16,123 bases of DNA from Caedimonas varicaedens. Its GTDB lineage: Bacteria; Pseudomonadota; Alphaproteobacteria; Caedimonadales; Caedimonadaceae. This document shows positions 8,447 to 16,100 of this stretch, one piece after another. The stretch's first letter is position 1. The number at the start of each line of letters is the position of its first letter. Made by a program: the position numbers and the translations under genes. The stretch covers positions 1 through 16,123 of the forward strand of contig BBVC01000065.1 of NCBI GenBank assembly GCA_001192655.1, read 5' to 3'. The notes beneath the pieces are model-generated. The model was not told the origin of the DNA. It ran no database searches and saw nothing but the letters and a program-made list of their open reading frames with translations.

Positions 8447-9124
8447 ATGAAAAACTTGATGTATTTTTTTATAAGCTTAATTTATTTAACGGGTTTTAAC
8501 GATAGCTATGGTGGAAGGTATCAAAACTGGGTTAATGAAGAAGAAATGTCCCCTTATTATTCTGCCATTCAGCATATTCGCACTCAATTAGAACCTTGCA
8601 TTCAAAAACACAAAGATTCCATACTAAACGGATTTGAAGCATGGTCATCGCCTAACCCCTCTTACTGTCGTACGCCTCGCTATCTATTTTTAGAAACTGA
8701 CACTTATAGTAATAGTGAGCGAATTGGAACTTTATATACTCCGCTCGGAGAAGTTAAGCTTTTAGTTGCAAGAACGGTAGACTCACTCACAGCATGTTCC
8801 ACAGAGTTTCTGGATATCATGAAAGAGGATTGGACGCTCAAAGAAGTGACAGATATTGTAAAGGTTTATAACTTCAGTCATTTTAGGAAAGAAGGAGAAA
8901 AACTATATGGGCCTTACAAATTCAAAAGTGAACCTTGGGAAGGAGCAAGCATTCAAAACCATCTCTATCTCATACAACGCGTTAATGGGCACGTCTTCGT
9001 TCAAAATGATCAAATTGTTCCTGATAATATGGTTATTTATAAACAAGCTCTCTTTAGAAGTGAGCAGCGTGATAGAGATGAAAGAATTTTTTCCAGCTTA
9101 TCAGGGGGCAAAAATACATTCTAG
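8447..9124 (+). CDS. Hypothetical protein with an N-terminal signal-peptide-like or anchor segment. I recognise no domain.
   Basis: 225-aa ORF. A good RBS (gaggaag) lies 5 nt upstream of the ATG. The N-terminus is hydrophobic (MKNLMYFFISLIYLTGF) with no lipobox Cys. The rest is hydrophilic with several Cys. The codon content is AT-rich. Confidence 0.6.
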   Translation: MKNLMYFFISLIYLTGFNDSYGGRYQNWVNEEEMSPYYSAIQHIRTQLEPCIQKHKDSILNGFEAWSSPNPSYCRTPRYLFLETDTYSNSERIGTLYTPLGEVKLLVARTVDSLTACSTEFLDIMKEDWTLKEVTDIVKVYNFSHFRKEGEKLYGPYKFKSEPWEGASIQNHLYLIQRVNGHVFVQNDQIVPDNMVIYKQALFRSEQRDRDERIFSSLSGGKNTF

Positions 9125-9406: not shown

Positions 9407-10228
9407 ATGAATCTTAAAGAAAAAATGAACTGGCTTGATGATTTTTTTGAAAGCAAAGCAGGTCATTGGATGATTGGAACGGTTGTCATCATCAATGCTC
9501 TGATCCTGGGCGCACAAACTTTCAAAAATATTCCCATAGAGATCGCCGAAAAATTGCATCATATCGATAAAGCGATTTTAGCTTTGTTCGTTATCGAATT
9601 GATAACCAAGATGTCTGTAGGCGGCGCTGCTTTTTTTAAACGAGGTTGGAACATTTTTGACTTTGTTATCATTGTCGGTTCTTTCTTCTATCATCACGAC
9701 TACTTACCTATTTTGCGTGCTTTTCGTGTGCTGCATTTAATGTCTTTTATGGATGCTTCTCCAAGGATGCTCCATATTATCTCAGGTTTGTGGAGAGCCA
9801 TGCCTGGAATTCTGAATGTTTTTTCTATCCTTATTCTGTTCTTTTATATTGCTTCAGTCATGGGCGTTTTTCTGTTTCGTGATGTTGGTGTTGCAGAATT
9901 CCAGCACATAGGAATTGCAATGAAGACAATGTTCCAGGTTCTTACAGGAGATGACTGGAGCAATATCATGAAAAATGTGGAAAAAATTAACCCCTATGCC
10001 TGGGCTTATTTTATCTCTTTTTATGTAATTCTCGTTTTCATCATTCTGAATTTATTTATCGGCGTCGTCGTTGGTGCTCTTCAAGCCGCAGAACAAGAAA
10101 TATTTGCAGATGACAAGGATGATGGAACCAAAGATTTAATCATTTCAATTAAAAAGAAACTTGAGCGGCTTGAAAAGAAGATCGACCTCCTTCCCCAACA
10201 AAAATCGGCTGATAAAAACAAAGTATAA
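9407..10228 (+). CDS. Single-domain six-TM voltage-gated cation channel (BacNav/NaChBac family) with a calcium-type selectivity filter
   Basis: 273 aa. S2 is IDKAILALFVIELITK. S3 is WNIFDFVIIV. S4 is LRAFRVLHLMS. The S4-S5 linker is SPRMLHIISGLWRAMPG. S5 is ILILFFYIASVMGVFLF. The P-loop is TMFQVLTGDDWSNIM. S6 is PYAWAYFISFYVILVFIILNLFIGVVVGAL. The C-terminal tail is coiled-coil-like (KKKLERLEKKIDLL). The start codon is uncertain; Met7 is an alternative. Confidence 0.9.
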   Translation: MNLKEKMNWLDDFFESKAGHWMIGTVVIINALILGAQTFKNIPIEIAEKLHHIDKAILALFVIELITKMSVGGAAFFKRGWNIFDFVIIVGSFFYHHDYLPILRAFRVLHLMSFMDASPRMLHIISGLWRAMPGILNVFSILILFFYIASVMGVFLFRDVGVAEFQHIGIAMKTMFQVLTGDDWSNIMKNVEKINPYAWAYFISFYVILVFIILNLFIGVVVGALQAAEQEIFADDKDDGTKDLIISIKKKLERLEKKIDLLPQQKSADKNKV

Positions 10229-10351: not shown

Positions 10352-10891
10352 ATGAAGATCAATCAAGAAAAAACTCAAAAGGGTCTGGCGGAACGTTATT
10401 TGGCAGCGGTGATATTTTCCAGTCGATGGCTGCAGGCCCCTCTTTATTTGGGCTTGATTATCGCCCAGGCGATCTATGTTTACCTGTTTATTGTCGAGCT
10501 TGCTCATCTCATTACGGATATCCACCGTATCGGGGAAAACGAAATCATGTTGATTGTGTTAGGCTTGATTGACGTGGTGATGATCTCCAACCTTCTGATT
10601 ATGGTTATTATTGGTGGATATGAAACCTTCGTTTCTCGCCTTCGGATTGATCACCCCGATATTCCTGAATGGCTTTCCCATGTGAATGCAAATACCATGA
10701 AAATCAAACTTGCCTTGGCTTTGATTGGGATTTCTTCCATTCACCTTTTAAAAACGTTTATCAACATCGATCATCTTTCTGAAAACAATGTGAAATGGCA
10801 GGTCGTTATTCATGCTTTATTTTTACTGTCTGCTCTTGCCATGGCCTATACATCAAAAATTGCCCAAGCAGTGGCTTCAGAAGAAGCCTAA
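10352..10891 (+). CDS. yqhA: UPF0114 / YqhA family inner-membrane protein
   Basis: 179 aa. It matches E. coli YqhA blocks as I recall them: SSRWLQAPLYLGL, GGYETFVSRL, ISSIHLLKTF, WQVVIHALFLLSALAMAY. Confidence 0.88.
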   Translation: MKINQEKTQKGLAERYLAAVIFSSRWLQAPLYLGLIIAQAIYVYLFIVELAHLITDIHRIGENEIMLIVLGLIDVVMISNLLIMVIIGGYETFVSRLRIDHPDIPEWLSHVNANTMKIKLALALIGISSIHLLKTFINIDHLSENNVKWQVVIHALFLLSALAMAYTSKIAQAVASEEA

Positions 10892-15437: not shown

Positions 15438-16100
15438 TCAGGATTTTGATGAATTAATTTTCTCTGGAAAGGATTTAAGCGCATAATAGACCGTTGGCAG
15501 GATAAACAAGGTAAAAATCGTTCCAAAAGCAAGTCCCCCCACAAGAACAGCGCCAATAGCGCGACGGCATTCAGCGCCCGAATCATGGGCAAGAACAAGA
15601 GGAATGGCGCCAAAAATCATTGCCGCGGTTGTCATTAAAATAGGCCTCAAACGCAAGGCAGCCGCTTTTTGAACCGCTTCAAACGAAGAAAGCCCTTCTT
15701 TCCCAAGTTGATTGGCAAATTCAACAATGAGAATTCCGTGTTTGCTGATCAAACCAATGAGTGTGATCAACCCGACTTGCGTATAAATGTTCAGAGATTG
15801 TCCCAATATCCAAACAACAAAAAGTGCTCCTGAAATTGCTAACGGAACCGTCAGCATCACAATAAGGGGATCAATAAAATTTTCGAACTGTACTGAGAGA
15901 ATCGCATAAATAAAAATAAGCGCTAAAGAAAAGAGAATAGCCATGGTCAGCGCAGAGTCCTGATAAAGCTTTGCCGCTCCTGTCCACTCTTTTTTATAGG
16001 ATTGAGGCAAGGAATTGTTCGCAATTTCCCAAAGTTTCGGCATTGCAGTCTCAATTTTCTCTCCTGGGTGCAAATCAGTTTTCAGAGTCGTTGAACGCAT
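15438..16100 (-). CDS. C-terminal fragment (about TM8-TM12) of an RND (AcrB/HAE1-type) efflux permease, probably truncated or a pseudogene
   Basis: The 220-aa ORF aligns to the last fifth of AcrB-type pumps (EWTGAAKLYQDS.., SVQFENFIDPLIVMLTVPLAISGALF, QVGLITLIGLISKHGILIVEFANQ, LRLRPILMTTAAMIFGAIPLV). An in-frame TAG (plus-strand cta, 16113-16115) lies 4 codons upstream of the first Met. Only 23 nt remain to the window edge. Confidence 0.8.
   Translation of the reverse strand: MRSTTLKTDLHPGEKIETAMPKLWEIANNSLPQSYKKEWTGAAKLYQDSALTMAILFSLALIFIYAILSVQFENFIDPLIVMLTVPLAISGALFVVWILGQSLNIYTQVGLITLIGLISKHGILIVEFANQLGKEGLSSFEAVQKAAALRLRPILMTTAAMIFGAIPLVLAHDSGAECRRAIGAVLVGGLAFGTIFTLFILPTVYYALKSFPEKINSSKS

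Follow-up and report, generated by a model that had tools for sequence, protein, structure and literature searches.

The window analysed here, a stretch of 16,123 nucleotides from Caedimonas varicaedens (contig BBVC01000065.1, GenBank assembly GCA_001192655.1; guanine plus cytosine (GC) content 41.6%), carries on its forward strand a gene for a single-domain ion channel with the selectivity filter TGDDWSN. The host, a member of the Holosporales, is an obligate intracellular endosymbiont of Paramecium with a 1.7-Mb genome of 42% GC. The open reading frame (ORF; 9407-10228, ATG at 9407) is complete, and its 273-residue product is 100% identical to GAO98523.1, annotated as an "ion transport protein" of C. 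varicaedens. The product matched the PF00520 (Ion_trans) profile over residues 20-230 (E-value 1.9e-38; 132.5 bits against a cut-off of 25); none of the NCBIfam models matched it. When PDB sequences were searched with phmmer, NavMs was the best match (148 bits, residues 10-259) and NavAb scored 117 bits.

Architecture of the channel

An AlphaFold2 model, for which 36 relatives served as input, contained six transmembrane helices, S5 and S6 being separated by the P1 helix, the filter and the P2 helix (mean predicted local distance difference test score (pLDDT) 83.6, about 96 in the pore, with a minimum of 65-69 in S4). Foldseek returned NavMs as the best structural match to this model, and NavAb and CavAb were also among the top matches (E-values 2e-12 to 1e-9). 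Within the voltage-sensor domain, S1-S3 correspond to modelled helices at residues 17-37, 44-78 and 80-93 (9455-9685), and S4 was placed at residues 101-115 (9707-9751) by alignment to NavAb R99/R102/R105/R108. The P1 helix (residues 168-180, 9908-9946), which ends in FQVLT180 and aligned with P1 of NavMs and NavAb, leads into the filter (9944-9964), the P2 helix (residues 184-194, 9956-9988) and the S6 inner helix (residues 198-238, 9998-10120). In S6, N215 is invariant in the clade of relatives described below, as is G219, and the gate-position residue V221 aligns to NavAb I217. A C-terminal helix follows (residues 241-270, 10127-10216), aligned with the NavMs C-terminal domain through residue 259; it carries a heptad-like pattern of leucine and isoleucine that is conserved in the clade, and it is probably a neck and coiled coil for tetramer assembly. 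The profile match, the modelled helices and the Foldseek matches together bear out the original prediction, made from the sequence alone, that this is a complete single-domain channel with six transmembrane helices. Within the BacNav superfamily the protein represents an uncharacterised variant in both filter and sensor.

The selectivity filter

Bases 9944-9964 (ACA GGA GAT GAC TGG AGC AAT) encode T180, G181, D182, D183, W184, S185 and N186. The phmmer alignments set FQVLTGDDWS opposite FQVMTLESWS of NavMs and FQILTGEDW of CaV2.2 repeat II. A MAFFT alignment that included the published reference set of Shimomura et al. placed T180/G181/D182/D183/W184/S185/N186 on NavAb T175/L176/E177/S178/W179/S180/M181, and the AlphaFold2 model had a non-helical G-D-D segment (residues 181-183) between P1 and P2. 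Because these three lines agree, the filter reading and its register are confirmed. D182 therefore occupies the high-field-strength (HFS) position (NavAb E177), D183 the position HFS+1 (NavAb S178, CavAb D178) and N186 filter position 7 (NavAb M181).

The canonical Na+ filter, TLESW[AS][SM], is not matched by TGDDWSN. By contrast, the acidic pattern of the engineered Ca2+ channels CavAb and CaChBac is present, with D182, D183 and N186 opposite CavAb D177, D178 and N181. The earlier claim that the native protein already carries D, D and N at the three positions converted in CavAb was thus upheld by alignment, and so was the parallel drawn between its glycine at position 2 and that of eukaryotic CaV repeat II (TGEDW). 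The reading of the CavAb filter as TLDDWSN is acceptable overall: PDB entries 5KLB and 6JUH carry that sequence, although reviews give TLDDWSD. The leucine found at position 2 in CavAb and CaChBac is absent here and is replaced by G181, which is invariant in the clade.

Between S4 and S6 the window protein and NavAb align with one gap of a single residue, much as in the near-gapless alignment first described. The gap lies directly after the filter (the column after N186, window positions 9965-9970) and makes P2 one residue shorter than in NavAb, NavMs and NaChBac; CavMr, NavPp and a group of actinobacterial TGDDW proteins have the same deletion.

Distribution and conservation

A search of 5.8 billion proteins, clustered at 90% identity, returned 46 clusters scoring above 187 bits, all of them with a [TS]GD[DNG]W filter. 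At the next matches, of 166 bits or less, the filter changed abruptly to TLESWSM. One further cluster, P0124, came from an exhaustive search of representatives, bringing the total to about 47, and across these clusters the hallmarks of pore and sensor are kept down to about 36% identity. G181, D182 and W184 are invariant in 36 aligned members of the clade, and D183 is present in 31 of the 36.

Five members among the matches listed carry organism names: Caedimonas; Candidatus Finniella (Paracaedibacteraceae, Holosporales); a Candidatus Paracaedibacteraceae metagenome-assembled genome (MAG); an unclassified alphaproteobacterial MAG; and a MAG labelled Janthinobacterium lividum. These few names are suggestive of an association between the clade and Holosporales symbionts. 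On the contig with the J. lividum label (L003, JBPBPI010000085.1) the encoded channel shares 62% identity with the Caedimonas protein. The GC content of the locus is only 41%, a value that we take to be out of keeping with that species, and the contig probably belongs to a symbiont and was mis-binned.

Positions 4 and 7 of the filter vary together. Aspartate at position 4 was combined with asparagine at position 7 in 51 of the 68 sequences examined, and four others (P0002, P0005, P0006 and P0022) had the reverse arrangement, asparagine at position 4 and aspartate at position 7 (TGDNWSD); neither two aspartates nor two asparagines occurred at these positions in any of the 68. Substitution of D183 (codon 9953-9955) by asparagine was accompanied in all four cases by substitution of N186 (codon 9962-9964) by aspartate, and the four sequences fall on three separate branches of a neighbour-joining (NJ) tree. 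One of them, P0002, is the closest relative of the window protein. Such a compensated exchange argues that selection acts on how many acidic groups the filter has or on where they lie.

Comparison with an 84%-identical orthologue, L082, taken from a public read assembly, gave a ratio of nonsynonymous to synonymous substitution rates (dN/dS) of 0.078 for the whole gene and 0.034 for the S4-S5 linker plus pore; dS was about 1.1. The gene is intact, functionally constrained and under strong purifying selection. The possibility of a pseudogene was rejected on dN/dS.

The voltage sensor

The four S4 charge positions, assigned by alignment to NavAb R99/R102/R105/R108, are occupied by R104 (R1), R107 (R2), H110 (R3; codon 9734-9736) and S113 (R4; codon 9743-9745), in place of the four arginines of BacNavs. 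Histidine is found at R3 in 25 of the 36 aligned clade members and R4 is serine, alanine or tyrosine, so that the S4 consensus of the clade is R-R-H-S or R-R-R-Y, the latter in a more divergent subgroup. The outer acidic residue E32 of NavAb corresponds to Gln37. The charge-transfer centre is kept: F61, E64, K68 and D85, together with D54, stand opposite NavAb F56, E59, R63, D80 and N49. E64 and D85 are invariant in the 36 relatives, and R1, R2 and F61 are invariant or nearly so.

These observations qualify the original description of the channel as voltage-gated. The intact charge-transfer centre speaks for it, but the S4 helix, with only two arginines and a conserved histidine that had been missed, makes voltage gating itself uncertain. 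The titratable histidine at R3 could confer pH-dependent gating or proton shuttling through the sensor. Proton shuttling of this kind is seen in engineered Arg-to-His mutants of Shaker.

Relationships and a second TGDDW lineage

The filter also occurs outside the Holosporales-type clade. Among the matches listed of a genome scan, TGDDWG[NT] was found in Nonomuraea and Herbidospora, and a search that took the Nonomuraea pusilla protein as query returned at least 41 clusters with TGDDWG[NTS], from Nonomuraea, Sphaerisporangium, Acrocarpospora, Herbidospora, Microtetraspora and related genera (Streptosporangiaceae). These actinobacterial proteins have a normal four-arginine S4, and many of them, from cultured Streptosporangiaceae, are annotated "ion transporter" or "voltage-gated sodium channel". 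Their neighbours in the search had TGEAWPD (39 clusters), TGEGWPD and similar filters. The TG-starting filters of actinomycetes (TGDDWGN, TGEAWPD, TGEGWPD and TGESWPD; L021 6001-6741, L066, L038; P0292-P0411) resemble those of CaV repeats II and IV, and no paper describing these BacNav homologues was found among open-access papers and bioRxiv, the literature searched throughout.

TGDDW filters are therefore present in at least 88 clusters (90% identity) in two unrelated lineages. The novelty first suggested for this filter type accordingly stands in part: it is not rare, but it is uncharacterised in the literature searched, where no description of a native channel of TGDDW or TLDDWSN type was found. 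The data sets of Shimomura et al. (2020) lack any GDDW filter, and neither ion channels nor sodium or calcium are mentioned in a 2025 review of the Holosporales. The accompanying statement that few native prokaryotic Ca2+ channels of this family are known proved sound, CavMr being the sole one characterised in the literature searched.

In NJ trees (simple corrected p-distance, 100 bootstraps) the Holosporales-type and actinobacterial TGDDW groups were joined in 0 of 100 bootstraps. A single origin of all TGDDW filters was rejected on this ground and because the actinobacterial group sits among TGEAW and TGEGW relatives with a normal S4. The Holosporales-type group formed a branch with P0124 and P0187 at 68% bootstrap, and with several single-domain channels lacking the filter tryptophan added the branch received 69%. 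The strict TGDDW set received weak support as a monophyletic group (9-31%), since the placement of P0124 and P0187 (TMDGWYD) inside or outside it varied. The channels without the tryptophan (P0137, P0170, P0159, P0193, P0215, P0224, P0230 and P0260) have filters such as LMAFDELGN, LMLGDNFGE, LMQSDNYGE and LMIYDDYGR; core identity was measured for P0137 alone (35.6%). They mostly have a charge-poor S4, and they have the S4-S5 motif E/D-x-x-P-x-x-K/R-H in common with the TGDDW clade.

Over the core, the window protein is 31.5% identical to NavAb, 32.9% to NavMs, 31.5% to NaChBac, 27.8% to CavMr, 29.6% to NavPp and 34.3% to the Nonomuraea protein. It lies outside both the Bacillus group and the AnclNav (ancestor-like BacNav) group, to which CavMr and NavPp belong. 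Membership of the AnclNav/CavMr group was rejected on three counts: 0 of 100 bootstraps, absence of the long P2-S6 loop, and aspartate rather than glycine at position 4. Recent transfer from the eukaryotic host found no support. The best eukaryotic matches are four-repeat channels of 27-31% identity whose scores are high because they are summed over repeats (60-68 bits for single repeats, against 148 for NavMs), and the neighbours of the channel gene at five loci are all ordinary bacterial genes.

Ion selectivity

On the favoured reading the gene encodes a working cation-channel subunit of the BacNav superfamily that is maintained by selection and presumably assembles as a homotetramer. In such a tetramer D182 at the HFS site and D183 one position outward would form two stacked rings of four aspartates, with the backbone carbonyls of T180 and G181 beneath them. 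This arrangement would be expected to bind divalent ions with high affinity and to pass Ca2+ in preference to Na+, with a permeability ratio (PCa/PNa) well above 1. Gly181 would probably open a small water-filled pocket under the filter, further stabilising a hydrated divalent ion. Gating would be carried out by a sensor with a charge-transfer centre, two arginines and one titratable histidine, so that, compared with NavAb and NaChBac, its voltage dependence would be less steep, with a possible influence of pH.

Because the aspartates are arranged as in the Ca2+-selective CavAb and CaChBac, a preference for Ca2+ would be the most likely behaviour, and we give preferential Ca2+ permeation about an even chance. 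The precedents come from two canonical channels. In NaChBac, PCa/PNa is 0.15 for LESWAS and rises to 35 for LEDWAS, 73 for LEDWAD and 133 for LDDWAD (PMC2229573). In NavAb, the S178D substitution (TLESWSM to TLEDWSM) raises PCa/PNa about 100-fold, and CavAb is given as TLDDWSD (PMC10120453). TLDDWSN is the filter carried by the PDB entries titled CavAb (5KLB, 6JUH) and by the 4MS2 series, so that DDWSN of the window protein is identical to the corresponding part of a crystallised Ca2+-selective filter. Spafford's survey classed one-domain channels with aspartate or glycine at HFS+1 as Ca2+-selective (PMC10120453), and glycine at position 2 is native to the Ca2+-selective CaV repeat II. Also in favour of Ca2+ permeation, the window protein is closer to the canonical BacNavs (31.5-32.9%) than to the AnclNavs (27.8-29.6%), in which the aspartate rule fails.

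A second set of observations weighs against this reading, and much of it points to a monovalent (Na+/K+) channel that is blocked by divalent ions as NavPp is, with the aspartate rings and the cavity at Gly181 trapping Ca2+ or Mg2+. NavPp (TLEDWTD) passes Na+ current that Ca2+ blocks, and its T6S and T6A mutants, the filters of which have been equated in review with those of CavAb and CaChBac, behave in the same way (PMC8677417). Introduction of aspartate at position 4 of CavMr abolishes selectivity (PMC7041947, PMC8677417), and external Ca2+ blocks NaChBac LESWAD (PMC2229573). The one-residue deletion after the filter, common to CavMr and NavPp, also favours block. The original prediction named glycine in place of leucine at position 2 as the only other difference from CavAb; the exchange is not neutral. 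NavAb L176G gains divalent block, its Na+ current being about half blocked at 40 mM Ca2+, and in crystals of this mutant (8HA1, 8HA2) a hydrated divalent ion sits in an extra water pocket below the filter, Ca2+ density being seen at the inner site (PMC10349818). NaChBac GESWAS and GEAWAS gave no measurable current (PMC2229573). On the other side, the window protein did not group with the AnclNavs and lacks their long P2-S6 loop, block of NavAb L176G is only partial even at 40 mM Ca2+, and aspartate at position 4 led to permeation by Ca2+, not to pure block, in each of the two canonical channels tested. A NavPp-like blocked channel is in our judgement unlikely, if credible.

The case for Ca2+ permeation is further weakened by the sensor, which has half the usual S4 charge in the part of the model that is least confident, and by the identity of only about 32% to the channels in which the aspartate rule was established; no functional data on any TGDDW channel were found in the literature searched. 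The sensor in particular brings in a weakly selective or non-selective cation channel with a degenerate sensor and little or no voltage dependence, acting as a leak or gated by pH or a ligand. Such a channel would agree with an S4 that has arginine at R1 and R2 only, with histidine at R3 and serine at R4, with glutamine in place of NavAb E32, and with the presence, among the nearest relatives in the NJ tree, of single-domain channels with a tryptophan-less filter and a charge-poor S4. Aspartate at the HFS position next to a neutral residue is moreover linked to non-selective Na+/Ca2+ permeation in the diatom channel EukCatA (TLDAWAD; PMC10120453). Yet R1, R2, F61, E64 and D85 are invariant or nearly so, and the conservation of R1, R2 and the charge-transfer centre argues that the sensor still moves charge; the conserved pair of filter aspartates and the compensated D/N swap likewise point to specific ion binding. 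We consider such a weakly selective, weakly voltage-dependent channel improbable.

That the gene is a decaying, non-conducting remnant in a reduced endosymbiont genome, or serves a role other than conduction, is very improbable: an obligate intracellular host with a 1.7-Mb genome, currentless NaChBac mutants with glycine at position 2 and a lack of conserved operon partners would fit it, but the reading frame is intact with a low dN/dS (0.078; 0.034 in the pore), the hallmarks of pore and sensor persist in about 47 clusters, and the same filter is retained in a second, free-living lineage. Preferential Ca2+ permeation is thus a reasonable hypothesis with known counter-examples, and it is not secure because reading selectivity from the filter sequence is known to fail in NavPp and because glycine at position 2 is not neutral.

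Genomic context

The genes before the channel gene in the window encode PolA, a GrpB-GNAT fusion, AccC, AccB, a GNAT protein, an APH-type kinase and a 225-residue protein with a hydrophobic N-terminus and no Pfam or NCBIfam match (8447-9124, forward strand). Those after it encode a UPF0114/TIGR00645 (YqhA-like) membrane protein (10352-10891, forward strand), a cupin, a major facilitator superfamily (MFS) transporter, PmbA/TldD homologues and an AcrB fragment. The last is a 220-residue ORF at the window end (15438-16100, reverse strand) that corresponds to the C-terminal part only of AcrB/AcrD/AcrF (profile positions 813-1020 of 1021) and may be a truncated gene or one with a mis-called start.

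The UPF0114 gene starts 123 bases past the channel stop codon, and no terminator-like site was seen between the two. Their order is kept in L082, but the adjacency is absent in Finniella and in two other clade members. No functional operon was found: UPF0114 is the only neighbour that also adjoins the channel gene in L082, and relatives further away have other gene contexts. Scans for promoters and terminators yielded weak consensus matches only, and no Rfam element was found within the window.

Implications

CavAb and CaChBac are the main structural models of Ca2+ selection, although critics have called their twelve-aspartate filters artificial. The one native prokaryotic Ca2+ channel characterised in the literature searched, CavMr, uses a different, glycine-based rule. 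TGDDW..N combines the aspartates of CavAb with the glycine of eukaryotic CaV repeats II and IV. A natural, conserved filter of this type therefore offers a direct test of whether aspartate rings are used in nature and of what the glycine at position 2 does. The channel would also offer the first sign that obligate endosymbionts of ciliates and amoebae retain a channel responsive to electrical signals or to Ca2+. In its broadest form the idea would be that the TGDDW clade represents a natural but unrecognised class of homotetrameric Ca2+ channels with CavAb-type, all-aspartate filters; that in obligate protist symbionts this filter is coupled to a charge-poor sensor in which the conserved histidine at R3 makes gating, or a proton shuttle, depend on pH, so that the symbiont might read Ca2+ transients of its host or vacuole acidification; and that the Streptosporangiaceae filter evolved independently. 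Taken as a whole this is speculative, and we hold it with little confidence. A channel found to be blocked by Ca2+ or to lack selectivity would join NavPp as a second natural case against the reading of selectivity from filter sequence.

Comparison with known channels

The window protein has in common with NavAb, NavMs and NaChBac the S1-S4 sensor, the S4-S5 linker, the S5-P1-filter-P2-S6 pore and the C-terminal helix, as well as the T-x-acid-x-W scaffold of the filter, the asparagine in S6 and the charge-transfer centre. Those channels have TLESW[SA][MS] filters and an R-R-R-R S4, whereas the window protein has TGDDWSN, R-R-H-S and a one-residue deletion after the filter, and it lies on a separate, moderately supported branch (68-69% bootstrap) together with other atypical single-domain channels.

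With CavAb and CaChBac it has in common aspartate at positions 3 and 4 and asparagine or aspartate at position 7, the DDWSN segment being that of 5KLB, 6JUH and 4MS2. It differs from them in that the filter is natural, with glycine rather than leucine at position 2, and stands in a background that is about 68% different. According to a 2021 review, no native Ca2+-selective channel with the filter of CavAb or CaChBac was known (PMC8677417). Like the window protein, CavMr and NavPp occur natively in prokaryotes, have a single domain and additional acidic residues in the filter, and are one residue shorter just after it. The selectivity of CavMr (TLEGWVD) depends on glycine at position 4 (PMC7041947); the window protein has aspartate at that position, has no long P2-S6 loop and is 27.8-29.6% identical to these two channels.

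Among eukaryotic channels, repeats II and IV of CaV have the same T-G-acid-[DN]-W pattern: FQILTGEDW of CaV2.2 repeat II aligns column for column, STGDNW of CaV3 repeat IV resembles the TGDNWSD variants of the clade, and CatSper2 of mouse and dog has TLDDW. CaV and CatSper form asymmetric four-repeat or heterotetrameric pores with one such filter, whereas the window channel would have four. A further parallel in filter sequence is with the TGDDWG[NTS] proteins of the Streptosporangiaceae, for example that of Nonomuraea pusilla, which likewise have a TGDDW..N filter and the deletion after it. Those proteins belong to an independent lineage (34% identity) with a four-arginine S4 in high-GC, free-living actinomycetes, in contrast to the charge-poor sensor of the channel from the Paramecium endosymbiont.

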